This document shows positions 3,719-38,532 of a DNA stretch of 64,000 nucleotides, in pieces. The notes below the pieces were generated by a model that saw only the letters and a list, made by a program, of their open reading frames with translations, had not been told where the DNA came from and ran no database searches. This DNA is from Microgenomates group bacterium GW2011_GWC1_46_15 (GTDB taxonomy: Bacteria; Patescibacteriota; Microgenomatia; UBA1400; UBA12028): contig LCLX01000001.1 of assembly GCA_001002285.1 (NCBI GenBank), positions 316,895 to 380,894 of the forward strand. The letters are read 5' to 3'. Within the stretch, counting starts at the first letter, position 1, and each line of letters begins with the position of its first letter. Made by a program: the position numbers and the translations under genes.

Positions 3719-3755
3719 AGTATCCAGAGTTTTCAGAATCTTGTACAATATCCAT

Positions 3756-4769: not shown

Positions 4770-4781
4770 ACGAGGAGGAAC

Positions 4782-5306: not shown

Positions 5307-5310
5307 TCCA

Positions 5311-6195
5311 ATGAAAAAAACACCTCTTCTCCCGCTCGTTGGCACGGGGCTTTCTGGTCTGGTCGGCTCGAAGTTTGTTGAAATGTTTGCCAAAACATAT
5401 GCGTGTACGAATCTTGACCTTACCGTTGGCGTAGATATTACAAACGAGTCGCAGGTGATGAAAGCGGTTGAAAAATCTCCAGCAGATGTTGTGATTCATT
5501 TTGCCGCATTTACCGACGCAACAGCCGCATGGCGGCAAACGGGAGATAAAAACGGTTTGTGCTACAAAGTGAACGTTGACGGAACGCGGAACATTGCAAA
5601 AGCTGCGCATGCATTTGGGAAGCACTTCATTCATCTCTCCACGGCGTTTGTATTTGATGGAGAGAAAGACACGATGTATACAGAAGATGATGCAACAAAT
5701 CCCGTTGAGTGGTATGGGGAAACAAAGGCGATGGCCGAGGATATTGTGCAAAACACCTGTTCCAGTTGGACAATTTTTAGAATTGATCAACCATTCCGCA
5801 GTGATGTATTTGAAAAAAAACCCGATACCGCACATCGGTTGATTACAGGCCTTACACAAGGAACGTTATACCCACAGTTTATTGACCACTGGTTTTCACC
5901 AACCATTTTGGAAGATTTTAGCCGAGTGTTAGACTGGGCGGTGCAGGACAAGCCACAGGGAATATTTCACGCGACCTCCGGGGTAAAAGTGAGCGATTTT
6001 GAGTACGCGACGATGATTAAGGAAGCGTTACATATAGACGGGGAGATCAAGCAAGGAAAGTTAGCTGAATATCTCCACACAATAAACCGGCCGTATCAAA
6101 AAAATACCGCGATGTCCTCAGAAAAACTCAAGTCCGAAACAAATATTGCGTTCACGCCTTTGCATCAGGCGCTTGAGCAGTTGAAGATGGTGTAA
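5311..6195 (+). CDS. rmlD: dTDP-4-dehydrorhamnose reductase-like SDR.
   Basis: RmlD-like layout: Gly-rich N-terminus, VIHFAAFTDA, HLSTAFVFDG, and a YGETK YxxxK motif. No rmlA is adjacent. Confidence 0.7.
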   Translation: MKKTPLLPLVGTGLSGLVGSKFVEMFAKTYACTNLDLTVGVDITNESQVMKAVEKSPADVVIHFAAFTDATAAWRQTGDKNGLCYKVNVDGTRNIAKAAHAFGKHFIHLSTAFVFDGEKDTMYTEDDATNPVEWYGETKAMAEDIVQNTCSSWTIFRIDQPFRSDVFEKKPDTAHRLITGLTQGTLYPQFIDHWFSPTILEDFSRVLDWAVQDKPQGIFHATSGVKVSDFEYATMIKEALHIDGEIKQGKLAEYLHTINRPYQKNTAMSSEKLKSETNIAFTPLHQALEQLKMV

Positions 6196-7552: not shown

Positions 7553-10285
7553 GTGGACATGACTTTAACGATGATCGGCACGGGTTTTGTGGGCGTTGTT
7601 TCCTCGGCGGTGTTTTCTTCTTTTGGAAACACAGTATATGGGCTTGATGTTGTTGAGGAGAAAATTGAGAAGCTCAAACGCGCCGAAATCCCCTTTTATG
7701 AACCAGGACTAAAAGAGTTGGTTGAAGAACAAATAAAAAAGGGCAATCTTCACTTTACAACGTCGTACCAAGAGGCAATTTCAGGTTCTGATGTTGTTAT
7801 TCTCGCTGTTGGAACTCCTTCTGCTGCGGATGGCCAGGCAGACTTAAAGTTTGTGTTTGCCGCGTGTGAAACACTTGCTCCGTTTTTAAAAGAAGGAGCC
7901 ATTGTTGCGATTAAAAGCACCGTACCTCCCGGAACGAATGCAAAAGTTGAACAGATTATTCGTGAAAAGACTCATGTGAAGTTCTTTACTGCGTCGTTGC
8001 CAGAGTTTTTGAAAGAAGGAACCGCGGTACAAGACACATTGCACCCGGATAGAATTCTCATTGGTGCGACAGACGCATCTGTTATTGAAAAATTAAAGAC
8101 GCTTCACGCCTCCTTGGGGGCTCCAGTCCTTGTGATGAAGCCGGAAAGCGCGCAAATGGCCAAGTATGCGGCCAATGCGTATCTCGCTACCCGCATCACG
8201 TTTATTAACCAAATTGCCAATCTTTGTGAGATCAATGGCGCCGATGTTTTGGAAGTGATTCAGGCGATTGGACAAGATAAACGAATTGGGGGCCATTATT
8301 GGTATCCCGGGCTTGGATATGGGGGGAGTTGTTTCAAGGGGAACGAAACAGTTTTTATGCTCAATAGTCCACGCGTGGCTCCTAGACGCTTGGATGAAAT
8401 TTTTCAGAAAGCAAATGAGTCAACTTCGATCGGTCGAGTCGAAGTTCGAGAAGCAAAAGATGCACGCGTACTGGCGTTTGACCTTCACACGGGAAATCCT
8501 ACTATTGCAGATGTACATGCGATAACCCGGCGACCATATCAAGGAGATATGGTGAAGATCACAACAAGTATGGGACGTTTGTTACACATAACTTCAGATC
8601 ATCCAGTTGTTCTTCGCGCCGAAAATACATTTATCATAACGCCTGCCTCACATGTTTCTGAGGGAGATCAGGTTATGGCACTTATGGAACTTCCAAAAAC
8701 TGAACGTACGACGGAACTGAACTTAATCGAGTTACTGCGGGGGACAAAGTTAGAAAAAACTGTGTACGTTTCTTCCATCGACGCATCTTTCGAGCAACAA
8801 TACCCGATATTTGTTCACCATATTCCAAAAAATATGCTCCATTACCCGCTGGAAATAAAGAAACATAACAGAATGTCACTAACACTCTTTCGTTATTTAG
8901 AAGAGCGCGGAGTACTTCACATTTCTTCCAAGAAACTTCAGGTATACACGGCAAAGGGAGCGGCAACAAAAATAAATGCTGTCATTTCCATTGATCAGGA
9001 CTTCATGCGGCTTTGCGGATACTATCTTGCAGAGGGATATATTGGCCTCGATGTAGGAAGGGTTGGCGCCCTGCGCAGCAGAATAGGGTTTTGTTTTAGT
9101 GAACGAGAATATGAATATATTTCCGATACCTGCGGCATTCTTAAACGCTTAGGAATGAAATATATTCAACGACATGCCACACACGCTATAACGACGATCG
9201 TGTCCTCACGAGTTTTTGCATGGGTGTTTCGTGATGTTTTAAAGATGGGGGTGCGTTCTGAGGATAAATCATTACCGCGAATTGCGTTTAATGTGCCGGA
9301 AGAATTACGTTTCGAACTTGTTCGTGGGATGTTTAGCGGGGATGGAGCGGTGACGAAAGTACAAAAAGGCCGCAATATGTTTTTTGAGTATGCAACAGTA
9401 AGTAAGTCACTTGCGGATGGAGCGGCATTTCTCTTGCAAACACTTGGTATCGTATCCTCTATTCGTGTACGCATGATGAACAAGTCTAAACATCAGGCAT
9501 ACATTCTTCGCATCAATGGATATCAACAAATGAAACAACTTATGAATGTGTTTGGAGAAAAACGACGGGATCAAATTCAAACAATACTTGCCGGTTATCA
9601 AAAACATATTAAGCAAAGCGGTTTTACACGATGCGGACCTTATACACTGCTCCGTGTCCAGAAAATCGAACGGGAAAAAGTTGATACCTTTGTGTATAGT
9701 TTGGAAACGAGTACAGGTACACTTATTGGTTCGTCCGGATTAATCGAACATAATTGTTTCCCCAAAGATGTGAAAGAGTTGGCCGCTTATGCCAAAGGAA
9801 TTGGTCAAAATGGCAATCTTATGGTCAAAGTAAGCGAGTTGAACGAAGAGCGGCCTTTAGCACTATTAGAGCGGTACGAGAAGCAAATCGGCGGTTGGGA
9901 AGGAAAAACGGTTGGTATACTCGGCCTTTCCTTTAAACCGAACACAGATGATATGCGGGAAGCTCCGAGTACGAAAGTTATTCCATATTTGTTGACAAAA
10001 AATACTCACATGAAAGCATACGATCCATTGGCGACAAAAACTGCTCAATCGTGGTTTCCCCAGTGGAACATAGAATATACTCAATCAACACAAGAAGCAT
10101 TGAAAGATTCGGATATTGTCATGCTTCTTATTGAGTGTGAAGAGTTTATTTCACTCTCCGTTTCTGACATTGCCGCCGGTATGAAGAAAGGCGGATGGTT
10201 TATTGATGTTCGCGACCAGTTTGCATCCAAGCGGAAAGAGTTCGACCAATACGGTATTCACTACATCGGGGTTGGCATTTCATGA
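7553..10285 (+). CDS. ugd: UDP-glucose 6-dehydrogenase precursor carrying a 475-aa intein. The mature enzyme would be about 435 aa.
   Basis: N-terminal IGTGFVG dinucleotide-binding fold. The catalytic motif GYGGS|C...HN|CFPKDV is split by the intein. The C-terminal UDP-sugar dehydrogenase domain resumes after 9755. The true start may be the internal M at 7559 or 7571. Confidence 0.85.
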   Translation: MDMTLTMIGTGFVGVVSSAVFSSFGNTVYGLDVVEEKIEKLKRAEIPFYEPGLKELVEEQIKKGNLHFTTSYQEAISGSDVVILAVGTPSAADGQADLKFVFAACETLAPFLKEGAIVAIKSTVPPGTNAKVEQIIREKTHVKFFTASLPEFLKEGTAVQDTLHPDRILIGATDASVIEKLKTLHASLGAPVLVMKPESAQMAKYAANAYLATRITFINQIANLCEINGADVLEVIQAIGQDKRIGGHYWYPGLGYGGSCFKGNETVFMLNSPRVAPRRLDEIFQKANESTSIGRVEVREAKDARVLAFDLHTGNPTIADVHAITRRPYQGDMVKITTSMGRLLHITSDHPVVLRAENTFIITPASHVSEGDQVMALMELPKTERTTELNLIELLRGTKLEKTVYVSSIDASFEQQYPIFVHHIPKNMLHYPLEIKKHNRMSLTLFRYLEERGVLHISSKKLQVYTAKGAATKINAVISIDQDFMRLCGYYLAEGYIGLDVGRVGALRSRIGFCFSEREYEYISDTCGILKRLGMKYIQRHATHAITTIVSSRVFAWVFRDVLKMGVRSEDKSLPRIAFNVPEELRFELVRGMFSGDGAVTKVQKGRNMFFEYATVSKSLADGAAFLLQTLGIVSSIRVRMMNKSKHQAYILRINGYQQMKQLMNVFGEKRRDQIQTILAGYQKHIKQSGFTRCGPYTLLRVQKIEREKVDTFVYSLETSTGTLIGSSGLIEHNCFPKDVKELAAYAKGIGQNGNLMVKVSELNEERPLALLERYEKQIGGWEGKTVGILGLSFKPNTDDMREAPSTKVIPYLLTKNTHMKAYDPLATKTAQSWFPQWNIEYTQSTQEALKDSDIVMLLIECEEFISLSVSDIAAGMKKGGWFIDVRDQFASKRKEFDQYGIHYIGVGIS
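8330..9754 (+). other. Intein (Hint splicing domain plus LAGLIDADG homing endonuclease), inserted in frame in ugd at the catalytic Cys.
   Basis: Cys1 (TGT at 8330) and block B LHITSDHPV (TxxH). Two LAGLIDADG-like motifs: LCGYYLAEGYIG and LVRGMFSGDGAV. It ends ...SSGLIEHN at 9754, with the +1 extein Cys at 9755. The extein junction reconstitutes the canonical GGSCFPKD motif. Confidence 0.85.
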
Positions 10286-17473: not shown

Positions 17474-18262
17474 TTATTTTATAACTTGATGTATCGAAAA
17501 ATCTACAAATTCATTAACTTTTGATATGGCTAGCCCGACACTTTTCTGTTCGTTGCTCCATTGTACCTTTCTCCATGTTACTGCATTTTGTATCAATGAC
17601 TTCCATTGAGGAAATTCTTCACAAATCCATTCTGCAGCTTGTTTTTTTGATACTTCTTCACCGTGTTTGTAACCATACAATGCTCTGCATAATGTAAATA
17701 CTACATAAGCCAAAGAACCTCGGGAAGACTGAGTATTATATTTTTTTATCCATTCACTCCAAAGAAGCGTATTTTCTTTGACAGCATTAATATACTCATC
17801 TTTAGATATTTTTGTAATAATTGATGCTTGATTAGGACCAAAAAGCACAATCCCGTTTTCCTGAACGATATACCAATTTATTAACCAATCTTTTCCTGCT
17901 TCAATGAAATGAATTGGTTCACCGGGGCTAATATTAACAATCTTACTGGTTTGAACCTTGAATGTTTTTAAACCAGAAAGAGAGACATATTGCACCTCAA
18001 TTCTATCCTTCCACGTTTTATATTTGTGGATTAAATCATCATGCATTTTCTTGAGAGCTTCAAATTCTAGTTCATCAATATCTACCGATGTTACGGTGAG
18101 TAAATCGATATCACTTATATCATGATCAAAATCTCCCGTTACAAGTGATCCGTAGAGATATAAACCCACGAGTTTATCATGAAGAATCGATTGCATTCGT
18201 GTTAATAAAGTATTAAGCAATCTATTGACGTCACTATAAGGCGTTACATTCATAAGAAACAT
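17474..18262 (-). CDS. Aminoglycoside nucleotidyltransferase of the ANT(3'')/ANT(9) (AadA/AadK) family.
   Basis: LYLYGSLVTGDFDHDISDIDLLTVT aligns with the AadA LYGSAVDGGLKPHSDIDLLVTV block. About 262 aa, the same length as AadA, with a DUF4111-like C-terminus. Low GC (about 33%) and on the opposite strand to its neighbours. Confidence 0.7.
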   Translation of the reverse strand: MFLMNVTPYSDVNRLLNTLLTRMQSILHDKLVGLYLYGSLVTGDFDHDISDIDLLTVTSVDIDELEFEALKKMHDDLIHKYKTWKDRIEVQYVSLSGLKTFKVQTSKIVNISPGEPIHFIEAGKDWLINWYIVQENGIVLFGPNQASIITKISKDEYINAVKENTLLWSEWIKKYNTQSSRGSLAYVVFTLCRALYGYKHGEEVSKKQAAEWICEEFPQWKSLIQNAVTWRKVQWSNEQKSVGLAISKVNEFVDFSIHQVIK

Positions 18263-19783: not shown

Positions 19784-21436
19784 ATGCGGCGCATGTTTGT
19801 TTTTCTTATCTGCGTGATCGTTACACTATTCAGCCTCCGCTTCCTTTTTAACACAACATTTTTTCCGATTCATGATTACACGCACGTAACCCGCCTTGTC
19901 GAGATGGATCGGGCGCTCCGCGATGGGCATTTCCCCGTGCGATGGGTGCGCGATCTTGGGTATGGATACGGCGAGCCACTGTTTAGTTTTTATGGACCCG
20001 CACCGTTTTATCTTGCCGAAGTGTTCCACCTTCTTGGTTTATCGTTTCTCGTGAGCATTAAGGCGCTTCTTGTTGTGATGACGCTTGCCGGATTTGCCGG
20101 CATGTATCTTTTGGCGTCAAAACTGTTCGGGCGGACAGGCGGAATACTAGCGGCTTCCGCGTTTTTACTCATTCCATACCGGGCGCTTGACCTTTTTGTC
20201 CGCGGTGCGTTCAACGAGCTGTTTGCCATTACAGTAGTTCCTTGGATTATGTACGGCATGCTGAACATGAAAGAGAAAAAATCGTGGAGATGGGTCGGCG
20301 CCATCACTGGGCTGTTTTTCCTTCTTTTTACGTCGCACAACCTCATGACGATGATGTTTCTTCCGTTTTTATATATTTTTGGAGTTGTTGTATTGTTTGG
20401 AGTAAAAGATAAACGGACGTACGCGCTAAAACTTCATTCAGCGCTTCTCTTGGGGGTTGTCGCGGCGGCGTTTTATCTTTTCCCCTCGTATCTTGAAAAA
20501 GGATTTACGCAGGTGGACAAGTTGATCGGTGGGTATGGTCTGTACGCATATCACTTTTTATATATCCGCCAATTTTTCACGGGTGTATGGGGATACGGTG
20601 GCTCGATTTCCGGAATAGAAGATGGGCTTTCGTTCCATCTTGGACTGGCGCATGTGGTATTGGCGGCGGTTGGCATAGCGGGGTGGTTTTTTCTCAAAAA
20701 GAAACGATCTGAAAAAATGCTCGCAGTTTTTATTGCAGCAGCAGCAGCGCTTGCGCTCTTTCTAACAATTTACAAAAGCCAGTTCATTTGGGATAGAATT
20801 CCGTTTTTTGTGTATTTTCAATTTCCATGGCGGTTTCTTTCGGTCACAACAGTGTTTTTGCCGTTGATGGCGGGTGGGGCGGTACTATGGATTCATAAAA
20901 AGTCGCATCGTATTTTGGCGGTGTGTGTGGTCATCATTGCATTACTCATTCTTAACTTGAAATACTTTGCACCCTCCAAACTTCTTGATAATCCGAACGC
21001 GCTGTACTACTCCGACCCGCAGAGAATTCAGGACTCAATGAGCGACACACTGCCGGACTACATTCCAATTGGCATGAAAGTCATTCAACCGCCGTTCCAA
21101 CAACCGTTTGAGTTGCTTGGAGCTTCCACAAAAGATCAAATCCAAGTTTTTGTAGATCGCACACAAGAAAAATTGTTATCCTTTACTCTGCAAAAACCTA
21201 CGACATTAATCGTTCGCACGGCGTGGTTCCCCGGCTGGACGGTGTACGACTTTGATCAAAAAATCACATATACTGTTGATACCACGACGGATTTTATTTC
21301 GGTTCCGTTACAAGAAGGACAACATTTTATCAGCGTTGTATTTGAAAATACTCCAGTACGTGCGGTATCAAATCTGATATCGATACTTGGGTTGTTGGGT
21401 ATAGCGGGAGCATTGTTTTATGGTAGACATGATTGA
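19784..21436 (+). CDS. Polytopic membrane protein of a GT-C-like family with an HDxxH / FPxRW / GYGYP motif (possibly Pfam PTPS-related membrane domain).
   Basis: IHDYTHVTRLVEMDRALRDGHFPVRWVRDLGYGYGEPLFSFYGPAPFYL. Shares this signature with the genes at 26045 and 51999. About 12 TM segments plus a C-terminal extracytoplasmic domain. Confidence 0.55.
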   Translation: MRRMFVFLICVIVTLFSLRFLFNTTFFPIHDYTHVTRLVEMDRALRDGHFPVRWVRDLGYGYGEPLFSFYGPAPFYLAEVFHLLGLSFLVSIKALLVVMTLAGFAGMYLLASKLFGRTGGILAASAFLLIPYRALDLFVRGAFNELFAITVVPWIMYGMLNMKEKKSWRWVGAITGLFFLLFTSHNLMTMMFLPFLYIFGVVVLFGVKDKRTYALKLHSALLLGVVAAAFYLFPSYLEKGFTQVDKLIGGYGLYAYHFLYIRQFFTGVWGYGGSISGIEDGLSFHLGLAHVVLAAVGIAGWFFLKKKRSEKMLAVFIAAAAALALFLTIYKSQFIWDRIPFFVYFQFPWRFLSVTTVFLPLMAGGAVLWIHKKSHRILAVCVVIIALLILNLKYFAPSKLLDNPNALYYSDPQRIQDSMSDTLPDYIPIGMKVIQPPFQQPFELLGASTKDQIQVFVDRTQEKLLSFTLQKPTTLIVRTAWFPGWTVYDFDQKITYTVDTTTDFISVPLQEGQHFISVVFENTPVRAVSNLISILGLLGIAGALFYGRHD

Positions 21437-22871
21437 TGTAAAGAAAAAATCAGTGCGGGGCGTTGTGAGTTACGCATTCCGAACACTTGCTTTGCAGGCT
21501 ATTGGGTTTGTCGCGACCTTGCTCCTGGGGTATTACTTGTCGCCAGCTGACTTTGGCATTTATTTTATCGTAACTGCAGTCATTGGAGTCTTTACATTCT
21601 TATCTGATATTGGTTTGGCGGCAGCGCTTGTGCAGAAAAAAGAGGAACCAACGCGCGAGGATCTTCAAACAACGTTTACCGTTCAGCAAGGATTGGCGTT
21701 CACGATTTTTGGCGCAACAATTCTGTTGACGCCGTTCTGGAAAACGTATGCCAATCTCGATACCGAGGCGCTGTGGCTTTTATATGCGTTGGGTTTTTCA
21801 TTCGTGTTGGCCTCGCTCAAAACAATCCCATCTATTTTGCTTGAAAGAAAACTTGAGTTTACAAAACTTGTTTTTCCTCAAATCATTGAAAATGTCTTGT
21901 TCTACAGTATCGCGGTTGCCTTGGCCGCCTCAGGCTTTGGCGTGCGTAGTTATACCATCGCGGTATTGGCACGGAGCATTGGTGGAGTAATCGCGATTTA
22001 TTTTATTCAGAGTTGGCCCATTGGTTTTGCATTTTCCAAGAAGGCGCTCCATAACTTATTGCGGTTTGGCGCAAAGTTCCAGTTGAATGATTTTCTTGCC
22101 CGTATCAAAGACGATCTGTTTATTGTCGTGATTGCCAGATTTATTCCCGCGACGCAGATGGGATACTTGAGTTGGGCAAAGCGATGGTCAATGTTCCCGT
22201 ACCAGTTCAGCGTGAACAGCATTATGTCGGTTACGTTTCCAACGTTTTCCCGCCTTCAGGAGCATCCAGATAAACTCAAGCGCGCGATCGAGAAATCTAT
22301 GTACTTCGTTACGCTTGTTATCTTTCCCGTACTCGTGGGGTTGTGTGTGTTGGCGTATCCAATGATCGGCATCATTCCAAAGTATCAAAAATGGCTGCCC
22401 GCACTTCCCGCGCTGTACTTTTTCTGTATAAACATCGCATTCGCGGCGCTTTCAACCCCGCTGACAAATACGCTCAACGCAATCGGAAAAATTAATCAAA
22501 CACTCAAACTCATGCTCATGTGGACGGGGCTAACGTGGACGCTTACCCCGCTCGCCGTGATGATGTTTGGATTTACCGGTGTTGCGGTCGCTTCGGCGGT
22601 TATCGCGTTGAGTTCAGTTGCAACAATTTGGATGGTAAAGAAGTACGTGCGGATTAAAACTCTCGATCAGATTTGGAGGCAAGCGTTTGCCTCACTTGCA
22701 ATGGGTGCTGCAATCCTTCTTGTACAAAATATATTCCACGTAGGATTAGTAGAAGTGTTAGCAGAAATTGTTTTGGGTGGTCTTTTCTACCTCGTGTTGT
22801 TATTAATCACGGGCAAGAAAAAACTCTTTTTTGAGCTCGAGTCCATTAAACCTTTTTTTGTGAAAGGATAG
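21420..22871 (+). CDS. wzx: Wzx-type oligosaccharide flippase (MOP superfamily polysaccharide biosynthesis protein).
   Basis: 483 aa with about 12-14 TM segments. The N-terminal YAFRTLALQAIGFVATLLLGYYLSPADFGIYFIV region is typical of Wzx/RfbX. Confidence 0.65.
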   Translation: MVDMIDVKKKSVRGVVSYAFRTLALQAIGFVATLLLGYYLSPADFGIYFIVTAVIGVFTFLSDIGLAAALVQKKEEPTREDLQTTFTVQQGLAFTIFGATILLTPFWKTYANLDTEALWLLYALGFSFVLASLKTIPSILLERKLEFTKLVFPQIIENVLFYSIAVALAASGFGVRSYTIAVLARSIGGVIAIYFIQSWPIGFAFSKKALHNLLRFGAKFQLNDFLARIKDDLFIVVIARFIPATQMGYLSWAKRWSMFPYQFSVNSIMSVTFPTFSRLQEHPDKLKRAIEKSMYFVTLVIFPVLVGLCVLAYPMIGIIPKYQKWLPALPALYFFCINIAFAALSTPLTNTLNAIGKINQTLKLMLMWTGLTWTLTPLAVMMFGFTGVAVASAVIALSSVATIWMVKKYVRIKTLDQIWRQAFASLAMGAAILLVQNIFHVGLVEVLAEIVLGGLFYLVLLLITGKKKLFFELESIKPFFVKG

Positions 22872-22873
22872 GA

Positions 22874-24919
22874 ATGAACAGCGTGTACTCGTTTCTAAGT
22901 ATTCAGTTTTGGTTTTTTACTCTCGTTTTTGTTCTCGCGACGTATGTTGTATGTTTTCTTGCCGGCAAGCTTGTGTTAAACCACGCACCGGTAAAATCGG
23001 AGGGAGCATTTCACTTTTTTCTTGCGAATGTCATCGGCCTCGTATTGTGGTCTTTGCAGGGGTATGTTTTTGGATACGCGCACCTTCGATGGCTTAGTTA
23101 TGTCTATGTAGTGGGCGTGCTGTATCTTTCGCGCAAAGATATACTTCAGACTATAAAAAGAGGAATCACTCCTGTTTTGCGGAACATTCTCTCATTTGAC
23201 CGTGTCATAGTAGGATGTATTGTTGTTGGCGCTATTCTCCAAGCGCTTCCTGTTTTTGGTTCCGGAGCAATGTATCCGGATGGCATCCGTTTTTACAAAA
23301 ACAACGCATACGATGGTGTGATGCATCTGAGTTATGTCGAATCAATCGTGAGAACATTTCCTCCGCGTGAACCCGGTTCATATATTTTGCCGCTTAAAAA
23401 TTACCACTATTTTGGGGACCTTTTTATTGCAGAACTTACGCGTATTTGGCGCATTCCCATCTCTCATATTTTTTTCCAATACATCACGATATACATTTCG
23501 GTGCTAACGGGCATTGGATTATATCTGCTCGTGAAAGAATGGGGAGGAAAAACTTCGACCATCCGTTGGGCGCTTTTCTTTTTATATGGAGCGGGAGAAC
23601 TCACATATCTTTTTATCCTCTTTTTTCACCGGATTGTAGAGTTTAATACGCCGGCATTAGACAACGGCATTGATCAGTTCTTAAACCTTCCGCATACTTT
23701 TGGGAAACTTATCTTTTTTGCAGGACTTCTCACATTATGGAACTGGAAAAAATCGCGTAAAAACGTATGGCTCATATTAACGATACTGCTTTTTGCTCCA
23801 CTCATCGGTTTCAAAGTATATTTTGGATTATTTGCCGGCATTGGGTTGGGATTGGTTTTACTTGACTATCTTGTGCGGAAGTATCTGCAGATAGTTCGTA
23901 CACACGGTATGTTCGGCGCTATATGGAAGACAATACTGAAAGAAAAAGTTGCTGTGCTTTGTGGACTTGGTTACATTCTCATCACGTTGGCAGTATATCT
24001 TCCAAGTAATGCTACTTCCGGAGGATTCTTTTACGCGCCTATGGAATGGCCCAAAATCTTTCTAGGGGAAGAAAATATTAACTGGACCGCATGGTGGTTA
24101 AGAAGTGCTGTATATCAAGATGCAAAAAATCTCCGCGGGATCATTGCGATGAACACAATCGCGATCGGTATTTTTCTTTTATGCATGCATGGAACACGCT
24201 TGCTTGGTGTATTGGTTGTCCCAAAACTACAGAAAGCGCTGGGGAGAGAAGGAGCGCTGTTTTTTATTCCCGGAACAGTCATTTTTACGATCATCGGTCT
24301 TACAACACTGCAAGTTTCTGGAATGTTTAATGTGTTTAACTTTTTTGTTGTAACAAGTGTACCACTCGCAATTTCTGCCGCGTTTTTGTTGGATGCATTA
24401 TGGAGCTCGAAATGGCGGTTTCTGCGGTTTGTAGTCACACTCATCGTTCTTTTTACCCTCCCGAGAGTGATGAATGACGCATATGAAACAATACTCATGT
24501 ACACAACAAAAGAGTTTTATTACGCTATTCCCCGTGGTGAGTTAGAAGCGTTTCGGTATATTGATCAACATGCACCAAAAGATGCAATCGTTCAGTCACA
24601 CCCCGAAAACCCACTTGATACGTACACGCAATATAGTTCGTTTTTTGTAAACAGGATGACGTATATAACGGGCGCAGGCAATCTAGAAACGCACAATGAG
24701 CCATTCAAAGAACAACAGCGGGAGGTAAATAAAATATTCTATGCTCCATTCACGTCTCAAATGTTTGAACAAATGCGGGAAAAAGGAATTTCGTATATCT
24801 TTTTCCAAAAACACAATCCTGCACAAAAACTTCCTTTTGATGCCAAAGACCTCGACACAAATATGGTGCGGCCATTTTTTGAAAACGACACCATTCTTGT
24901 ATTAGAACGTGTGCGATAA
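22874..24919 (+). CDS. Large polytopic membrane protein of unknown family, putative glycan polymerase or GT-C.
   Basis: 681 aa and highly hydrophobic, sitting immediately after wzx. No catalytic motif was recognised with confidence. Confidence 0.45.
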   Translation: MNSVYSFLSIQFWFFTLVFVLATYVVCFLAGKLVLNHAPVKSEGAFHFFLANVIGLVLWSLQGYVFGYAHLRWLSYVYVVGVLYLSRKDILQTIKRGITPVLRNILSFDRVIVGCIVVGAILQALPVFGSGAMYPDGIRFYKNNAYDGVMHLSYVESIVRTFPPREPGSYILPLKNYHYFGDLFIAELTRIWRIPISHIFFQYITIYISVLTGIGLYLLVKEWGGKTSTIRWALFFLYGAGELTYLFILFFHRIVEFNTPALDNGIDQFLNLPHTFGKLIFFAGLLTLWNWKKSRKNVWLILTILLFAPLIGFKVYFGLFAGIGLGLVLLDYLVRKYLQIVRTHGMFGAIWKTILKEKVAVLCGLGYILITLAVYLPSNATSGGFFYAPMEWPKIFLGEENINWTAWWLRSAVYQDAKNLRGIIAMNTIAIGIFLLCMHGTRLLGVLVVPKLQKALGREGALFFIPGTVIFTIIGLTTLQVSGMFNVFNFFVVTSVPLAISAAFLLDALWSSKWRFLRFVVTLIVLFTLPRVMNDAYETILMYTTKEFYYAIPRGELEAFRYIDQHAPKDAIVQSHPENPLDTYTQYSSFFVNRMTYITGAGNLETHNEPFKEQQREVNKIFYAPFTSQMFEQMREKGISYIFFQKHNPAQKLPFDAKDLDTNMVRPFFENDTILVLERVR

Positions 24920-24927
24920 GGAGACTG

Positions 24928-26061
24928 GTGCATAATAGAAAGATGAAATATCTTGGTTTGTTTCTCGCAGTGTTTATCACTGGATACCATGTGTTTTCGC
25001 AGTGGCAGGTCTTTTCTTCCCCAACGGATATGCGGGCATTTGGCAAGGCATATGCAAACTCACAATATGTAAAAGGAGAAGCGAGCACGCAGAAAGTTGA
25101 TGATGCGGCGGTGTATACATACGCGGCTTCTGCATACATGCGTGGGGAAGACCCAACGACAATTAACTTTGAGCATCCGCCATTAGGAAAGTATCTTTTT
25201 GGAGTGTCGTACCTCCTAACAGGAAATATATTATGGGCGAATGCAGTTGCGCTTTTTCTCGTTTTATTTTTTCTTGATGTACTTATGCGGCGCGTTAGCC
25301 TCATGCCACTATTACGCGCTATCGTACTTCTTCTTTTTGGTCTCCAGGAGATGATTCATGTTCACATGCGGTTGGGATTGATGGATCTCATGGTGTTGTG
25401 CGCGAGTGTGATATTTTTTGTGGCGCTTTTTTCGCAGAGTCCAAAACAAAATCCGAAATGGAAAAAATGGCACGGGGTTGGAGTAGGCCTTGTATTAGGG
25501 TTGCTTGCTTCGCTTAAATATCCTGTACCCTCAATTGGAATGTATGTGGCGATGATGGTGTGGTGGTACGTCCGGCAAAAAACATACCGACAGATTGTTG
25601 TTGCAAGTTTGGTGGCAGTGAGCATGTACATGTTTACGTACGGGGTGTATTTTCTTCATGGTCATTCGCTGATCGATTTTGTGAAGTTCGAATGGTACCG
25701 GTTCCGGTGGTGGACGGGAGATCGGAGTATGCCAAAGTTTTTAATTCTGCAGACTTTATTTACAGGGGGATTTCCCGCTTGGTGGGATAAAGGAGCGCGG
25801 TATGTGGAGACGGAATGGTCGGTGCTATGGCCGGTAGCGTATATTGCACAGTTCATCGGGCTTCCAGTGATGAGGAAAAACAAAGAGCTCCAAATGTATT
25901 TTGTGTATGGTACTGGATTTTTAATGTTATTTGCCGTTGGTGCGGCCTCGTTTGGTCGGTATCTCCAGCAGCTTTTGCCATTTTGGTTGATTATTGCGGC
26001 ATGTGGAGCGCAGTGGGTGTACACGCAAGTCAAAAAGAAAAACTATGCAAAACAAACATAA
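24928..26061 (+). CDS. PMT-like GT-C membrane protein (short form).
   Basis: KVDDAAVYTYAASAYMRGEDP...FEHPPLGKYLFG carries the DDxxxY and HPPLGK motifs of the PMT/ArnT first loop. The ORF-track start is GTG 24928, with an alternative ATG at 24943. Confidence 0.5.
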   Translation: MHNRKMKYLGLFLAVFITGYHVFSQWQVFSSPTDMRAFGKAYANSQYVKGEASTQKVDDAAVYTYAASAYMRGEDPTTINFEHPPLGKYLFGVSYLLTGNILWANAVALFLVLFFLDVLMRRVSLMPLLRAIVLLLFGLQEMIHVHMRLGLMDLMVLCASVIFFVALFSQSPKQNPKWKKWHGVGVGLVLGLLASLKYPVPSIGMYVAMMVWWYVRQKTYRQIVVASLVAVSMYMFTYGVYFLHGHSLIDFVKFEWYRFRWWTGDRSMPKFLILQTLFTGGFPAWWDKGARYVETEWSVLWPVAYIAQFIGLPVMRKNKELQMYFVYGTGFLMLFAVGAASFGRYLQQLLPFWLIIAACGAQWVYTQVKKKNYAKQT

Positions 26062-27760
26062 CATTGTTTTTATGAAATATGTGATGCAGTGGGCAGTATG
26101 TGTAGGAGTTGTATTTTTTGTGTTTCTTCTTGTGATTCGTCCACTTCGGCAGTTCGGCATGATTCGTACATTTGATGATGTGCAGGTGGTTCGGGTGCAA
26201 GCGATGGTAGATGAGTTGAAGAGTGGGCAGTTTCCCGTGCGGCTGGTGAGCAAACTTGGTATTGGTGGTGGATATATGCTGTTCCAGTTTTACCCGCCAT
26301 TGGTGTACTACATTGGTGCTGTTTTTTTTGCGGTTGGATATCCAGTCGTGCATGCGACAAAACTCGTGTTTTTATTGGCGTATGCAGTTGGCGCAAGTGG
26401 AATGATGGTCCTGGGATATACGATGACGCGGAACAAAGTGTTGGCAACACTTGGGGCGATGATGTTGATTACATCGGCGTATTTTAACTTTGATGCCTAC
26501 TCGCGTGGAGCGCTTGCAGAGTTGATGGCATTTGGGTTTGTCCCGTGGGTTTTGTGGGCATATATGCAACTTCGGGGTGCAAACTCATCACTGCGGGATA
26601 CGGTGTGGATTCCGGTTTCCGCTCTTTCATATGCTGCGCTTGTGTATGCACACACGATTATTGGATTTGCGTTAGCGCCTTTTGTTGCACTGATGTGTAT
26701 ATGGCGGCCATTTTCTCGAGGAAGATGGATGAGATTTGGTGTGTCTGCACTTGTGGTGTTTGGACTATGTGCATCATTACTTTTGCCGGTCATGAGTGAA
26801 CGGAAGTATGTGGCATATGACAGCACTGAGTATGCACAGGATGCGTATCGTGGAACGTTTCGCAATTTTTCACAAATATTTGGAAGCGAGAGTCTTTTGA
26901 ATGATTTTCGGGCACCAAGTTTGGGTGTAGGTTTGGCAGTTGGTGGATTGGTAAGCTTGATATATGGATTGTGGTATATACAAAAGCATGTTCAAGGAAA
27001 AAAAGATAAAGTGATGGCGTCGCATATGCAGGCAATTCTTTGGAGCACAATACTTGCTATGTTTTTAATGCACCCTGCAAGTACATGGGTATGGGAGCGC
27101 GTGAGTTACCTCCGATTTATGCAGTATCCATATCGGTTTCTCACGGTGCTAACGGTATACGCGATTCTCTGTGTGTTACTATTTTTAAAACTTTCTCTAA
27201 AATCCAGGGTACATCGTGTAATAAAGATAATAGTTATTCTTGGCATACTTACAGCTCCATGGATATTTCAACGACAAAACTTTCAACCGCTTGGACATGT
27301 GTTTGTAGATACGTTCGAGGCAACGGGGAGTTGTGGGACAACGACCTGGCAAAATGAGTTACTTCCGCGATGGGTTGAAGAGTGTTTAGACGGGGGCGGA
27401 GGAGATGTTGTTCGGGCAAAAAGTAACGTAGTGAAGATTCAATCAATTTCTGTTGACAAAGGAGAACGGAAAATTTCCTTTATAACAAATGGCAAAGCGG
27501 GGGAAGTATTTGTGCGGAAGTATTATTTTCCCGGGTGGATTGTACGAACACCATCAGAGAGTTTTGTTCCGAGCTACACAACGCATAACGGACTCATAAC
27601 TTTTTTTGTGCGCAAAGGGGTAACCGAGTATAGGGTTGTGTTTACAGACACTCCTGTTCGAAAGATTGGAAATAGTGTAACCGTGGGAACTGCAGTAGCT
27701 GTTGCGATATATATAATTGGGTGGGGAGTTCTGCGTGTTTGGAAGCGCAAACAAGCATGA
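26045..27760 (+). CDS. Polytopic membrane protein of the HDxxH / FPxRW / GYGYP GT-C-like family (paralog of 19784).
   Basis: FDDVQVVRVQAMVDELKSGQFPVRLVSKLGIGGGYMLFQFYPPLVYY. The ORF-track start is 25994, and internal Met starts at 26045 or 26072 are more plausible. A T8 tract lies in the coding region. Confidence 0.55.
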   Translation: MQNKHNIVFMKYVMQWAVCVGVVFFVFLLVIRPLRQFGMIRTFDDVQVVRVQAMVDELKSGQFPVRLVSKLGIGGGYMLFQFYPPLVYYIGAVFFAVGYPVVHATKLVFLLAYAVGASGMMVLGYTMTRNKVLATLGAMMLITSAYFNFDAYSRGALAELMAFGFVPWVLWAYMQLRGANSSLRDTVWIPVSALSYAALVYAHTIIGFALAPFVALMCIWRPFSRGRWMRFGVSALVVFGLCASLLLPVMSERKYVAYDSTEYAQDAYRGTFRNFSQIFGSESLLNDFRAPSLGVGLAVGGLVSLIYGLWYIQKHVQGKKDKVMASHMQAILWSTILAMFLMHPASTWVWERVSYLRFMQYPYRFLTVLTVYAILCVLLFLKLSLKSRVHRVIKIIVILGILTAPWIFQRQNFQPLGHVFVDTFEATGSCGTTTWQNELLPRWVEECLDGGGGDVVRAKSNVVKIQSISVDKGERKISFITNGKAGEVFVRKYYFPGWIVRTPSESFVPSYTTHNGLITFFVRKGVTEYRVVFTDTPVRKIGNSVTVGTAVAVAIYIIGWGVLRVWKRKQA

Positions 27761-29503: not shown

Positions 29504-30763
29504 ATGCGAGCACAAAAACGCCCGTACCATCTCTTGCGATGGCTGATTCTCTTCTCAGTGTTTTTCTTGACTCGCTTTTGGATTCTTCAACATCCTCCAG
29601 CTTTGTACTCTGATGTAAAACATGACTATGAACGGTACGCAAACATGTGGAGATATGGACTTACTCCATACCGCCAGCATCTCTATGAGTACCCTCCGGC
29701 AACAATTCCAATTCTCTCTGCGCCTTTAGTTGTTGACCAAATAGGCGTAGGGCATTATTACCTGAACTATCGTGTTGAAATTTTCTTGTTTGAAATAGTT
29801 TTGTTCAGCATCCTCGCATATACGGTGTTCCGTTTACCGATGAAAAAATCTATGCAGTGGGGAGCAATAATGTTTTATCTTATTGCCGGAGTGTTGGCAA
29901 AAGATTTTTGGTATGAAGGACTCGATCTTATGTTTTTTGGCATTTTCTCGATACTTTTTTGTCTGATTTTGCTTGTTAAACAGCCCTCACTCTTTTCAAG
30001 AATTGTAACGTGGTCGTTATATTGGTTGACCGTGAGTATAAAAATCATGACCGCACCACTCGCGGTGCCAATCGTACTGCTCGAAATGAAAAACTGGAAA
30101 AGGGAGTTCAAAGCGATTATTGCAGGATTTCTTATTATATGGGGCTTACCACTGGCACTGTATCGCTCATCACTTTCTGTTTTTATATTTTTTCACGCGG
30201 TGAGACAAATGAAGTATGCATCATTTGGTTCATATATTGTCGAAGTTATTAATGAGTTCACAAAATCTGAACATCGTTCTGTTTCACCCCCGGACTTTGA
30301 GTGGATCGGTCCAGTAGCACATCAAGTTACTGAAATATTTAAGGTTCTCTTTCCAGCAGCGATACTCGTGGTTATGTATATTGCCTGGAAAAGATATCGG
30401 CAGCATGTGAAAGAACTCGTGAACCCGTTCACTCAATATACCTATCTCATCGCAGTTTCTTTGGCATATGTATTCGCCATTTTCTTGACGGGAAAAACAT
30501 TTTCCAGTCCATTTCATATTTGGTACATTCCATTACTCACGCTTTTTCCGTACAAAAATTTAAAACAGCAATGGTTTGCCTATGTGTCGGCGCTTCTGAT
30601 GTTGGGCATGGATACATCTTCTTATCTCATCGCGCCCAAGCTCCATATTTGGGGGAGTCCTATCACACTTACGAATGTCCGCGACGCTTTCCGTTTTATT
30701 CCCATGTTCCTCCTGTTAAGTTTTTTCTTGAAAGAAGGTACAATGGGGCTCAAGAAATCATGA
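29504..30763 (+). CDS. GT87/DUF2029-like polytopic membrane glycosyltransferase.
   Basis: YSDVKHDYERYANMWRYGLTPYRQHLYEYPPATIP matches the DUF2029 D..Y...G..PY....YPP first-loop signature. Confidence 0.5.
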   Translation: MRAQKRPYHLLRWLILFSVFFLTRFWILQHPPALYSDVKHDYERYANMWRYGLTPYRQHLYEYPPATIPILSAPLVVDQIGVGHYYLNYRVEIFLFEIVLFSILAYTVFRLPMKKSMQWGAIMFYLIAGVLAKDFWYEGLDLMFFGIFSILFCLILLVKQPSLFSRIVTWSLYWLTVSIKIMTAPLAVPIVLLEMKNWKREFKAIIAGFLIIWGLPLALYRSSLSVFIFFHAVRQMKYASFGSYIVEVINEFTKSEHRSVSPPDFEWIGPVAHQVTEIFKVLFPAAILVVMYIAWKRYRQHVKELVNPFTQYTYLIAVSLAYVFAIFLTGKTFSSPFHIWYIPLLTLFPYKNLKQQWFAYVSALLMLGMDTSSYLIAPKLHIWGSPITLTNVRDAFRFIPMFLLLSFFLKEGTMGLKKS

Positions 30764-31650
30764 ACGCACATTCCATTTCTGTCATCATCCATACAAAAAA
30801 TGCTGAAAAAACGATTGAGAAAGCGATGAACTCGGTGCGGTCGTGGGTAAATGAAGTGCTGGTGATTGATATGAGCAGTACGGACGCGACGGTAAAGTTG
30901 GCGAAAAAACTTGGCGCTGGTGTGCACATCGTGGCCGATCAAGGATACGCTGATCCCGCGAGGAACGAAGCGCTCAAGTTGGCAAAGAGTGCGTGGACTC
31001 TTGTGCTTGACGCAGATGAAGAAATTCCCCCAACTCTTGCGGAGTATCTTCAACAGATAGCTCGAAATGGTGGTGCGGACGCGTACTTTTTGCCCCGCAA
31101 GAACATGATTTTTGGAAAATGGGCAAAAACAGGATGGTGGCCGGACTACATCATCCGCTTTTTCCGCTCTGGCGCAGTGCAATGGTCGCCAGGCGTTCAT
31201 GGTACACCGGTAACAAAAGGGAAAACGGCGTATGTTCCAGTTCAAGAAGAACTAGCCATTCTGCACCATAACTATGGTTCGGTTGAGCAGTTTGTTGACC
31301 GCATGAACGTATATACCTCGTTGCAGGCGAAAGAGCACGCGGAAGAAAAGCCACTCTTGCGTGCAGGAGCGGATGAGTTTTTCAGAAGGTTTTATAAAGA
31401 AAAAGGACACGAACAGGGTGTGTACGGTTTAGCATTATCATTTCTGCAAACCATGTACATGGTAACGTTAGAAATTAAGCGGTGGGAAAAAGCAGGAATA
31501 TTAGACGAGAAAAAATCAGAAGCACTCGAAAAAGAAATGCGGATGATTGGGAAACATTTGCGGTACTGGATTGCGGATATGCACGTACACACAAGCGGTT
31601 CTCTAGTAGGTAAAACATATTGGAGAGCACGAAGAAAGTTTTGTCTATGA
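30760..31650 (+). CDS. GT2 glycosyltransferase (WaaE/KdtX-like small GT2).
   Basis: ISVIIHTKNAEKTIEKAMNSV...LVIDMSSTD...DADEEIPP. Paralogous to the genes at 38533 and 47565. The start is an ATGA overlap with the upstream stop. Confidence 0.7.
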   Translation: MNAHSISVIIHTKNAEKTIEKAMNSVRSWVNEVLVIDMSSTDATVKLAKKLGAGVHIVADQGYADPARNEALKLAKSAWTLVLDADEEIPPTLAEYLQQIARNGGADAYFLPRKNMIFGKWAKTGWWPDYIIRFFRSGAVQWSPGVHGTPVTKGKTAYVPVQEELAILHHNYGSVEQFVDRMNVYTSLQAKEHAEEKPLLRAGADEFFRRFYKEKGHEQGVYGLALSFLQTMYMVTLEIKRWEKAGILDEKKSEALEKEMRMIGKHLRYWIADMHVHTSGSLVGKTYWRARRKFCL

Positions 31651-32348: not shown

Positions 32349-32903
32349 ATGAAACGCCTTACATTTTTTGAGCCGATTTTTCAGGAGTTGCGGATACGAA
32401 AAATTTTGCCATATCTATCCAAAGGAGGAGTACTTGTTGATGTTGGGTGCGACCAACCGCAAGTATTGATTGATCGGGTATGCGAAGAAATGAAGGAATG
32501 TATTGGCCTTGATATCGTGGTTGATCCTCATACACATGGGAACGTGCGAATTCTCCGCCAAGACTTGCAGAAGAAAATTATTTTGCCATCCAATACGGCG
32601 AACGTTATCACACTTCTTGCCGTGCTCGAACACATGAAGCATCCTGCCGACATCATCCGTGAATGTTTTCGCGTATTGAAAAAGGGTGGTGTCTTACTCA
32701 TCACTGTGCCTTCCGCCCAAAGCAAACCCCTGCTCGAACTTTTTGCGATACTTGGTTTTGTGCGTAGAGAAATGATTGAACAGCATGAGAATTATTTCTC
32801 ACACGACAAACTTCATACAATATGTAAAGATGCTGGATTTAAAACGGTGCATGTTGAGTCATTTGAGCTAGGATGCAATACATTTATTCGAGCGGTGAAA
32901 TGA
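32349..32903 (+). CDS. Class I SAM-dependent methyltransferase.
   Basis: VLVDVGCDQ (motif I) and LEHMKHP...LKKGGVLLITVP (post-II/III motifs). Confidence 0.6.
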   Translation: MKRLTFFEPIFQELRIRKILPYLSKGGVLVDVGCDQPQVLIDRVCEEMKECIGLDIVVDPHTHGNVRILRQDLQKKIILPSNTANVITLLAVLEHMKHPADIIRECFRVLKKGGVLLITVPSAQSKPLLELFAILGFVRREMIEQHENYFSHDKLHTICKDAGFKTVHVESFELGCNTFIRAVK

Positions 32904-38522: not shown

Positions 38523-38532
38523 AGGAGCATCT

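Follow-up and report, generated by a model that had tools for sequence, protein, structure and literature searches.

Three PF10131 membrane proteins of a Microgenomates bacterium that most likely glycosylate a cell-wall polymer on the outer side of the membrane

The window analysed here is the whole 64,000-nucleotide stretch of contig LCLX01000001.1 from Microgenomates group bacterium GW2011_GWC1_46_15, one of the Pacebacteria (CPR). It contains three open reading frames that the initial annotation had grouped as a GT-C-like membrane family. All three were found (19784-21436, 26045-27760 and 51999-54749), the ATG of gene 2 at 26045 lying inside a longer frame that begins with TTG at 25994. The family modules that they encode are as follows:

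19784-21436, forward strand: gene 1, 550 aa, predicted type-1 PF10131 GT-C enzyme, 'HDxTHVxR' subtype
26045-27760, forward strand: gene 2, 571 aa, type-2 PF10131 paralog, 'FDDV[HQ]VxR' subtype
51999-53594, forward strand: gene 3 N-module, aa 1-532, type-3 PF10131 paralog, 'THDGxNHLxR' subtype

True paralogy joins gene 1, gene 2 and the first 532 aa of 51999-54749. In an all-against-all blastp of the 55 window proteins, gene 1 matches gene 3 (E 4e-43, 26.6% over 527 aa) and gene 2 (E 2e-33), and gene 2 matches gene 3 (E 2e-29), with pairwise identities of 25-27% over about 530 aa; the alignments extend beyond the first loop and span each whole module of about 530-550 aa. The first-loop signature by which the genes had been grouped is roughly correct as a consensus: it reads IHDYTHV...GHFPVRW...GYGYGEPLFSFYGPAPFY in gene 1, TFDDVQV...GQFPVRL...GIGGGYMLFQFYPPLVYY in gene 2 and THDGENHL...GQFPPRW...GGYGYPVFNFNYPLANI in gene 3. 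However, its 'FYxPLxYY' element is literal in gene 2 only, and gene 2 has replaced both signature His and the Trp while retaining D44, R50, R66, R154/E159, H203, E252 and QYPYR364. The first-loop Asp is kept in all three paralogs (D31 in gene 1, D44 in gene 2, D30 in gene 3).

The architecture of the gene 1 protein was taken from an AF2 model of high confidence (pLDDT 92.4, pTM 0.93):

aa 2-22: TM1
aa 23-87 (nt 19850-20044): first outside loop, with the signature
nt 19874-19876: codon of D31
TM2 to TM11, ending at aa 394
aa 346-350 (nt 20819-20833): QFPWR motif
aa 397-523 (nt 20972-21352): extracytoplasmic beta-sandwich of about 125 aa
aa 524-549: C-terminal TM anchor

The topology first described, about 12 TM segments after the signature and then a large C-terminal domain, thus holds for a polytopic protein with an extracytoplasmic C-terminal domain but not in its details, as TM1 precedes the signature, ten TM helices follow it, the domain is modest in size and a TM anchor closes the protein. 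The polytopic core superposes at fold level on solved GT-C enzymes, the structural-similarity search giving STT3 (STT3B), AglB and PglB as best matches. Nine residues past TM1, in the first extracytoplasmic loop, D31 provides the conserved acidic residue of GT-C enzymes and, judged by position only, would be the counterpart of their catalytic Asp. The C-terminal beta-sandwich matches glycoside-hydrolase sandwich domains and not the periplasmic domain of oligosaccharyltransferases (OST), and none of the three window proteins contains a WWD or WW[DE][YWF]G motif. A sequence/profile search of the PDB with the family alignment returned nothing significant.

The match to the Pfam family called PTPS-related, proposed in the initial annotation, was borne out by the profile search: gene 1 (34.6 bits) and gene 2 (37.7 bits) score above the curated PF10131 gathering cut-off of 26.4 bits as whole proteins, and gene 3, under the cut-off at 22.3 bits, is the unambiguous homologue of gene 1 described above. 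PF10131 is also matched by 35 of 39 aligned family members, and many database relatives bear the NCBI name '6-pyruvoyl-tetrahydropterin synthase-related protein'. This name is historical, and a genuine pterin-synthase relationship is ruled out for polytopic membrane proteins with a GT-C fold. The match covers only the first half of the model (aa 67-390 or 80-408 against positions 1-301 or 1-305 of 621), the C-terminal half having no counterpart, and nearly all of the gene 1 signature (aa 27-72) precedes the matched segment (aa 67-390). Because of this half-model match, the signature outside it and the score of gene 3, the CPR proteins are a divergent, short PF10131 subgroup whose C-terminal beta-sandwich and TM anchor are its own. 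An NCBIfam search of the three proteins gave no meaningful family except AZOBR_p60025 on the C-terminal module of gene 3. Haloferax AglS, a Dol-P-Man mannosyltransferase, might be a PF10131 member, but the papers that we found do not decide the matter and we make no such claim. PF10131 is listed in the Pfam GT-C clan CL0111 with its function given as unknown, in the only paper that we found on the family (PMC7801869). The earlier statement that no biochemical function is known for it agrees with that paper; the proposal of an uncharacterised GT-C clade is supported as to GT-C, but the clade is not new, since Pfam had already placed the family there.

An HMM alignment covering 474 family members shows D31 to be invariant (469/469 non-gap residues), and R37 (468), P51 (468), G63 (466) and P65 (467) to be nearly so. 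Further invariant positions, absent from the signature as first drawn, are R140/G141/E145, H185, P234/E238, H257, Q263, D280 and Q346-F-P-W-R350. Altogether about 20 charged or polar residues are near-invariant, and each of them sits in a predicted outside loop or at the end of a helix.

The neighbourhood contains the following genes:

2205-3224, forward strand: LytR-CpsA-Psr (LCP) ligase of glycopolymer to peptidoglycan
3630-6195, forward strand: dTDP-rhamnose genes (rmlB 3630-4769, rmlC 4782-5306, rmlD 5311-6195)
21420-22871, forward strand: Wzx/MOP-family flippase (Pfam Polysacc_synt_3, 180 bits; NCBIfam MOP flippase, 151 bits)
24928-26061, forward strand: 377-aa membrane protein directly upstream of gene 2 and overlapping it
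30520-31650, forward strand: GT2 of the type found directly after Wzx in relatives, real start probably later
37587-41335, forward strand: GT2 (37587), GT2 (38533), GT4 (39327) and GT2 (40427), in the types and order of consensus-operon positions 3-6 in relatives

The flippase gene begins within gene 1, sharing its last 17 nt, and a Wzx gene lies immediately downstream of the gene-1 orthologue, co-directional and mostly overlapping, in 59 of 76 loci over an identity range of 34-61%. The LCP gene is the divergent immediate neighbour of the orthologue in 37 of the 76 related genomes. The consensus operon of relatives consists of LCP, divergent from PF10131-Wzx-GT2-GT2-GT2-GT4-GT2, and is flanked by rmlB/rmlC/rmlD-type rhamnose synthesis genes. 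It contains no DPM1-like GT2, and within ±6 kb no polytopic membrane protein that would be another candidate polymerase. No DPM1-like GT2 occurs within 6 kb at 46 of the 59 Wzx-linked loci, and such a gene stands immediately upstream of the family member at 7 of the 76 CPR loci. The triple presence next to polyprenyl-phosphate-sugar synthases that had been described holds for gene 3 only, near the synthase-like GT2 at 50224; the conserved partners of gene 1 and gene 2 are Wzx and the 24928 membrane protein, respectively. In L066, a gene 2 orthologue with the same variant motif is likewise preceded by a 24928-type gene. Among the other large membrane proteins of the window, hhalign marks the one at 32873-35158 as remotely related (93% over TM3-7), and a C-terminal sandwich is common to both; the one at 22874-24919 is not related to the family, and its sequence/profile search against the PDB gave nothing significant. 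PMT and PMT_2 genes are numerous in the window.

Gene 3 combines two modules, the first including its own beta-sandwich and TM anchor. The two genes before it, the junction and the second module are:

50224-50934, forward strand: DPM1/AglJ-like GT2, second gene upstream of gene 3, candidate polyprenyl-phosphate-sugar synthase
50953-52002, forward strand: GT4 glycosyltransferase directly upstream of gene 3, 4-nt overlap
53586-53593, forward strand: A8 homopolymer at the junction of the modules
53595-54749, forward strand: gene 3 C-module, aa 533-916, a second GT-C module, of compact type, whose first loop bears the motif W-A-G-F-D-G-V-H-Y

The C-module resembles the ALG12, PIG-M, PimE and PIG-V mannosyltransferases and, as a PIG-V/ALG12-like compact GT-C, has both a fold match and a family-model match; a sequence/profile search of the PDB gave nothing significant for it. 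The order GT2-GT4-PF10131-PIGV-like is kept in L011 and L086. In a 91%-identical sister genome the junction has A7 and reads ...KKI followed by a TGA stop that overlaps the ATG (ATGA) of a separate 384-aa gene; as read from these two sequences, one extra A in the poly-A run fuses what are two overlapping genes in the sister. The fusion may be an assembly artefact (homopolymer miscount), but at 35-46% identity there are genuine fusions that have no poly-A run.

In cultured bacteria, distant family members stand directly after an overlapping GT2 in Roseomonas and Monoglobus (E 1e-49 and 4e-53 against the family HMM), and one (E 2e-34) adjoins such a GT2 in divergent orientation in Sphingobium. 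These GtrB-like partner GT2s have two C-terminal TM helices and match best the DPM1-like group of the window, and no Wzx is annotated in the neighbourhoods of these pairs outside CPR.

We conclude that the products of the three genes, members of a large catalogued family, most likely attach sugars to a polymer of the cell wall on the far side of the membrane. The analysis shows family membership, fold, conserved residues and gene linkage; as to catalysis, donor type and acceptor, we infer from context a more specific scheme, which we consider on balance probable as a whole: GT-C transferases that depend on polyprenyl-phosphate-sugars and decorate a wall glycan exported by Wzx and anchored by LCP. 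The proteins, which belong to PF10131 and have the GT-C(A) fold, would be integral-membrane glycosyltransferases with a putative active site in which first-loop Asp31 acts as catalytic base together with H30/H34, R37 and R53, completed by R140/E145, H185, E238 and the QFPWR350 loop. The donor, a polyprenyl-monophosphate-sugar, would be built on the cytoplasmic side by a DPM1/GtrB-like GT2 and then flipped, and a single sugar would be moved from it to an acceptor glycan that the C-terminal beta-sandwich would hold. Gene 1 would be the conserved core copy, its product taking the step right after the Wzx flippase, on the rhamnose-containing wall glycan of Microgenomates/Pacebacteria that Wzx exports and LCP anchors. 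As accessory paralogs, genes 2 and 3 would have other specificities, and gene 3 is linked, in this sequence by fusion, to a further GT-C module of mannosyltransferase-like type that would add the next sugar. A monophosphate-sugar donor is suggested by the DPM1-like GT2 pairs (Roseomonas, Monoglobus, Sphingobium and the seven CPR loci), by the position of gene 3 after a DPM1/AglJ-like GT2 and its fusion to an ALG12/PIG-M-like module, and by the cross-match of 9 of 39 family members to YfhO (PF09586; best E 1.9e-9), a match that none of the three window proteins gives at E<=1.

Two observations stand against this donor. The best fold matches, STT3, AglB and PglB, use pyrophosphate-linked oligosaccharide donors, and a consensus operon with neither a DPM1-like GT2 nor another polymerase fits a Wzy-like role at least as well. 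It is possible, if rather unlikely, that gene-1-type proteins are the equivalent of Wzy and polymerise the Wzx-flipped UndPP-linked repeat unit, or transfer it en bloc to an acceptor from a PP-oligosaccharide donor as STT3, PglB and Wzy do. The overlapping Wzx at most loci, an operon otherwise made of LCP, Wzx and five cytoplasmic glycosyltransferases, and a loop pattern shared with GT-C3 Wzy proteins all speak for this; yet outside CPR the family pairs with GtrB-like GT2 where no Wzx is annotated, gene 3 is fused to a Dol-P-Man-type module after a DPM1-like GT2, and the cross-matched YfhO is a monophosphate-sugar user. Moreover, since the operon survey spans ±6 kb, a conventional Wzy could sit elsewhere, and the window itself has other polytopic proteins without assignment (22874, 29504, 48927). 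An hhalign comparison with E. coli K-12 WbbH, which may not be a GT-C3 member, showed no similarity (probability 0.1%). That type-1 PF10131 forms a previously unrecognised Wzx-coupled GT-C(A) class, polymerising or ligating en bloc the flipped UndPP-linked repeat unit, appears doubtful; if true, it would supply Microgenomates/Pacebacteria with their 'missing Wzy' and be the enzyme on which CPR wall-glycopolymer assembly centres.

Transfer to S-layer, pilin or other surface proteins instead of wall polysaccharide, by oligosaccharyltransferase-like or PMT-like activity, is improbable. It would agree with STT3 and AglB as best structural matches, with the plentiful PMT and PMT_2 genes and with a secondary NCBIfam similarity of the window Wzx to an O-glycosylation flippase (125 bits, far under cut-off), but the WWDYG-type motif is missing from all three proteins, the 125-aa sandwich is of glycoside-hydrolase and not OST type, and the conserved LCP and rhamnose synthesis neighbours point to a peptidoglycan-linked glycopolymer. 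Non-catalytic roles are known for the GT-C fold, as in PIG-U of the GPI transamidase, and the literature that we found shows no activity so far for any PF10131 member; nevertheless, it is very improbable that these proteins serve Wzx or other enzymes as scaffolds or as subunits that bind lipid, as the near-invariant charged and polar residues, including the canonical first-loop Asp, form the pattern of an active site and not of a scaffold.

For the window alone this is an annotation-level result, the three genes being ordinary members of a catalogued family. New here are the Wzx linkage, the consensus operon, the GT2 pairings and the poly-A fusion of gene 3. PF10131 is among the largest GT-C families without an assayed member (the family profile finds 25,308 cluster-50 representatives at E<=1e-3) and is particularly common in CPR/Patescibacteria, a group in which, to our knowledge, envelope biosynthesis is essentially unstudied. 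The operon of LCP, PF10131-Wzx and five glycosyltransferases with rhamnose genes offers a definite pathway, open to test, by which these ultrasmall bacteria would make a rhamnose-containing polymer linked to peptidoglycan, and the GT2 and PF10131 pairs of the culturable Roseomonas, Sphingobium and Monoglobus are tractable systems for finding donor and acceptor.

Several known systems resemble the one proposed. The solved GT-C(A) enzymes (STT3/AglB/PglB of GT66, AftD, ArnT of GT83 and Pmt of GT39) share 9-16% sequence identity with the window proteins, which differ from them in having no WWDYG and a different, much smaller soluble domain; the GT66 model PF02516 is matched by just one of 39 relatives. 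Wzy polymerases of CAZy clan GT-C3 (GT122-124), which adjoin Wzx in polysaccharide loci, are described as having a long outside loop near the N-terminus in which an Asp, a His and two Arg are conserved (PMC10920833). Compared by description, H30, D31, R37 and R53 of gene 1 follow the same pattern, but the Wzy donor is a pyrophosphate-linked repeat unit and a C-terminal beta-sandwich is not reported for them. In the three-component side-chain system of Citrobacter youngae O1, the GT136 enzyme ORF12 is an UndP-ribofuranose:O-antigen ribofuranosyltransferase whose activity is abolished by D31A, E34A, H106A or R349A; as described, it resembles the gene 1 protein in architecture, with 11 TM helices, TM1 being followed by a small helical domain, and at the C-terminus a beta-rich domain that binds carbohydrate (PMC11127046). 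Unlike the window proteins, it is placed by CDD in the EpsG family and not in PF10131, and its donor synthase is of UbiA type. Finally, YfhO supplies the GT-C component in the CsbB/GtcA/YfhO UndP-GlcNAc system (PMC8035078; PMC11898649). It is larger, and its system has a GtrA-type flippase where gene 1 has Wzx, but it is likewise a polytopic GT-C encoded beside a membrane-anchored GT2 that makes the UndP-sugar, for teichoic-acid GlcNAc in Bacillus, Listeria and Staphylococcus, and the same GT2-then-GT-C gene pair recurs in Roseomonas, Monoglobus and the seven CPR loci.

Three open reading frames, singled out by the initial annotation as a three-member GT-C-like family, were all found where it had described them:

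19784-21436 (+), gene 1, 550 aa
26045-27760 (+), gene 2, 571 aa
51999-54749 (+), gene 3, 916 aa, divided into an N-module (aa 1-532) and a C-module (aa 533-916)

An all-against-all blastp of the 55 window proteins linked gene 1 to gene 3 (E 4e-43, 26.6% identity over 527 aa), gene 1 to gene 2 (E 2e-33) and gene 2 to gene 3 (E 2e-29), and none of the three matched any other window protein with comparable strength. The similarity covers the full module of about 530-550 aa and extends beyond the first loop. The common first-loop signature on which the family had been proposed is real in all three genes, in a looser form than the one originally worded: IHDYTHV...GHFPVRW...GYGYGEPLFSFYGPAPFY in gene 1, TFDDVQV...GQFPVRL...GIGGGYMLFQFYPPLVYY in gene 2 and THDGENHL...GQFPPRW...GGYGYPVFNFNYPLANI in gene 3. 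Conservation was counted on 474 family members (drawn from two homologue searches, one representative search and 80 genome loci) aligned to an HMM derived from 39 aligned sequences. The signature Asp is invariant (469 of 469 non-gap residues), and R37, P51, G63 and P65 (gene 1 numbering, as throughout) are each conserved in at least 466 of the 474 members. Equally fixed positions, absent from the initial list, are R140-G141-x-x-x-E145, H185, P234/E238, H257, Q263, D280 and Q346-F-P-W-R350.

Genes 1-3 belong to the catalogued family PF10131, in the catalogued superfamily GT-C. Genes 1 and 2 score 34.6 and 37.7 bits against the Pfam cut-off of 26.4, and the N-terminal half of gene 3 scores 22.3 bits; the proposed PF10131/GT-C reading is supported, and was already implied by the Pfam clan assignment. 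The match is limited to model positions 1-301 of 621 and begins only at aa 67, so that the signature lies largely outside the Pfam-defined region. PF10131 is listed within the GT-C clan CL0111 with unknown function (PMC7801869), and we found no assayed member. At E<=1e-3 the family profile matches 25,308 representatives, and at 1e-30 it matches 8,891. Relatives of gene 1 are essentially all Patescibacteria/CPR (Pacebacteria, Microgenomates, Beckwithbacteria, Woesebacteria), the closest database match being a Candidatus Pacebacteria MAG (94% identity).

A sequence search of the PDB detected no entry for the family. The AlphaFold2 model of gene 1, computed from the same 39 aligned sequences, has high confidence scores (pLDDT 92.4, pTM 0.93) and contains the following elements:

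aa 2-22, TM1
aa 23-87, first outside loop, with short helices at 34-46, 66-69 and 73-83
up to aa 394, ten more TM helices
about aa 440-520, eight-stranded beta-sandwich
aa 524-549, last TM helix

Since no SEDS or WaaL-type (GT-C_B) structure appears in its top-ranked fold matches, the predicted fold is of the GT-C_A kind. D31 is positioned nine residues past TM1, and the Asp proposed to be catalytic in solved GT-C enzymes follows TM1. The activity of ORF12, a GT136 enzyme with biochemical characterisation, is abolished by D31A, E34A, H106A and R349A (PMC11127046). From their position, we infer that D31 and R350 may correspond to these residues of ORF12 and of the solved GT-C enzymes.

The main new information of this analysis comes from the neighbourhood across genomes. 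We collected 80 loci from species-representative genomes with gene-1 orthologues (34-61% identity), of which 76 were usable, and assigned labels to the ORFs from blastp matches to the annotated proteins of the window. In 59 of the 76 loci, the PF10131 gene is immediately followed on its own strand by a Wzx flippase gene (21420 type), which usually overlaps its stop codon (a modal gap of -4, the ATGA type); the same arrangement is present in the window (17-nt overlap) and in the related contigs L001 and L003. The divergent upstream neighbour is, in 37 of the 76, an LCP (LytR-CpsA-Psr) glycopolymer-to-peptidoglycan ligase (window 2205 type; Pfam LytR_cpsA_psr), with rmlB, rmlC and rmlD located beyond it. 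The modal order after Wzx is GT2 (30520 type), GT2 (37587), GT2 (38533), GT4 (39327) and GT2 (40427). None of these five glycosyltransferases falls in the DPM1-like group, and the consensus operon contains no other polytopic membrane protein. In seven loci without adjacent Wzx, the PF10131 gene is instead directly preceded by a co-directional DPM1-like GT2 gene. The window holds all the consensus genes in scattered positions: in this genome the insertion of numerous additional GT-C and GT2 genes has split up the ancestral operon.

Envelope glycosylation genes are extraordinarily abundant here, and GT-C genes reach an exceptional density, with 14 genes (15 modules) within 64 kb, located at 13936-59505. 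By gene start, these are:

GT-C: 13936, 16262 (its orthologue in L001 has PF26314 MptA_B), 18287, 19784, 26045, 32873, 41332, 42831, 44426, 46039, 51999 (two modules), 56521
further GT-C, on the minus strand: 27765, 58027
DPM1/AglJ/ArnC-like GT2, five genes: 12707 (fused to GtrA), 15483, 31620, 50224, 60846

Four PMT-like paralogs lie in tandem at 41332-47568, and each of the five DPM1/AglJ-like GT2 genes sits just upstream of a GT-C gene. The glycan set is completed by seven other GT2, two GT4, Wzx, the LCP ligase, rmlBCD and several sugar epimerases/dehydratases. Other features of the region are:

559-1656 (-), polyprenyl synthetase (143 bits), on the left border of the glycan region
3221-3718 (+), RNase H-like ORF (170 bits), overlapping the annotated rmlB start at 3630, which is therefore probably too early
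7553-10285 (+), UDP-glucose/GDP-mannose dehydrogenase gene (host domains aa 3-264 and 788-889) interrupted by an intein with LAGLIDADG homing endonuclease (aa ~297-734; Intein_splicing 39 bits, LAGLIDADG_3 63 bits)
17474-18262 (-), AadA-like nucleotidyltransferase (AadA_C 54 bits, NTP_transf_2 29 bits), a lone minus-strand gene amid the glycosyltransferase run
22874-24919 (+), 681-aa protein of about 12 TM with 'AYDGVMHLSYVESIVRTFPPREP' near aa 145, loosely like the HD..H...FPxRW loop
32873-35158 (+), 761-aa membrane protein, a remote relative of the PF10131 family
35153-36088 (-), alpha/beta hydrolase (106 bits to Abhydrolase_1), in convergent orientation to the GT-C gene 32873

The 22874 protein has no family match and its profile comparison was not significant; its type is found near PF10131-Wzx in 4 of 76 loci, and it could be another GT-C or the real polymerase. 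The 32873 protein has no Pfam match; it aligns with the family over TM3-7 (hhalign, 93% probability) and with the gene 3 beta-sandwich (blastp, 1e-4), and the genes before it encode a DPM1-like GT2 (31620) and a methyltransferase (32349). In B. subtilis, the alpha/beta hydrolase UshA releases UndP from UndP-sugars (PMC11898649); that the 35153 hydrolase might recycle a carrier likewise is pure speculation.

The three genes represent distinct types. The core copy, linked to Wzx, is type 1 (gene 1, 'HDxTHVxR'). Type 2 (gene 2, 'FDDV[HQ]VxR') retains the Asp, Arg, Glu, His and QxPxR positions, with both His and the Trp of the signature replaced; because an orthologue in the related contig L066 shares the variant motif and the preceding 24928-type membrane protein gene, it is a stable subfamily rather than a copy in decay. 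Type 3 (gene 3, 'THDGxNHLxR') is preceded by a DPM1/AglJ-like GT2 and a GT4, an order repeated in L011 and L086, where a PIG-V-like gene follows.

Residues 533-916 of gene 3 are a second GT-C module (PMT_2, 28.8 bits, Pfam; AZOBR_p60025 family, NCBIfam; AlphaFold2 pLDDT 83.4). In L086, the 91%-identical relative P0121 consists of two genes, one for a 532-aa protein ending ...KKKKKI-TGA and one for a 384-aa protein whose ATG overlaps that stop. As the sole junction difference is A8 in the window (53586-53593) versus A7 in L086, the fused form in the window could reflect either a genuine +1 change or a miscounted homopolymer. Fusions that lack a poly-A run occur in more distant relatives (35-46% identity, 925-1033 aa), so that coupling of these modules is biologically recurrent. 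The topology is consistent with fusion: the last TM of module 1 would return the chain to the cytoplasm, followed by a Lys-rich linker, and the first loop of module 2 (WAGFDGVHY) would again be outside. Several tandem PF10131 modules per polypeptide (2, 3 or 6) were observed in the database relatives P0241, P0242, P0243 and P0274 (1093, 1116, 1670 and 3329 aa), so that GT-C module fusion recurs well beyond gene 3.

Beyond CPR, distant family members were recovered in Roseomonas, Sphingobium and Monoglobus by tblastn of plasmid records (family HMM E-values 1e-49, 2e-34 and 4e-53). The PF10131 member directly follows an overlapping GT2 in Roseomonas and Monoglobus, and the two genes are adjacent and divergent in Sphingobium. 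Each of the three GT2s carries two TM helices at its C-terminus, and their best matches are to the DPM1-like group of the window.

It is a well-supported prediction that the PF10131 proteins are outward-facing GT-C glycosyltransferases using a polyprenyl-phosphate-linked donor. The scheme that fits most evidence, which we consider somewhat probable, resembles the ER N-glycan pathway: a lipid-linked glycan would be assembled by cytoplasmic glycosyltransferases and flipped by Wzx, the PF10131 enzyme would then extend or decorate it outside with a sugar from a polyprenyl-P-sugar, and the product would be attached to peptidoglycan by LCP. Such monophosphate-monosaccharide donors are used by most GT-C_A families (Table 1 of PMC10920833), and we counted in their favour the GtrB-like partners found outside CPR as well as in 7 CPR loci, the DPM1-like GT2 ahead of gene 3 and the Dol-P-Man-type module fused within it, and the YfhO cross-matches (9 of 39 family members). 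Against these stand the tight coupling to Wzx, a minimal operon without other polymerase candidate or DPM1-like GT2, fold matches to STT3, AglB and PglB, and an Asp/His/2-Arg N-terminal loop pattern as reported for GT-C3 Wzy families, all of which would suit a polymerase or en-bloc transferase (Wzy-like or OST-like) using a pyrophosphate-oligosaccharide donor, a reading we hold to be rather unlikely. A role in protein glycosylation appears improbable, and a non-catalytic one very improbable.

The GT2 and PF10131 genes outside CPR form the same type of gene pair as csbB-yfhO and gtrB-gtrC (PMC8035078; PMC11898649), and such pairs in culturable organisms would make the function of the family testable. 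By the tests applied, genes 1-3 are not members of the YfhO family (no PF09586 match at E<=1), and CDD assigns GT136 ORF12 to the EpsG family; in working mode, these two would be the nearest, as three-component side-chain GT-C systems with a C-terminal carbohydrate-binding-like domain.
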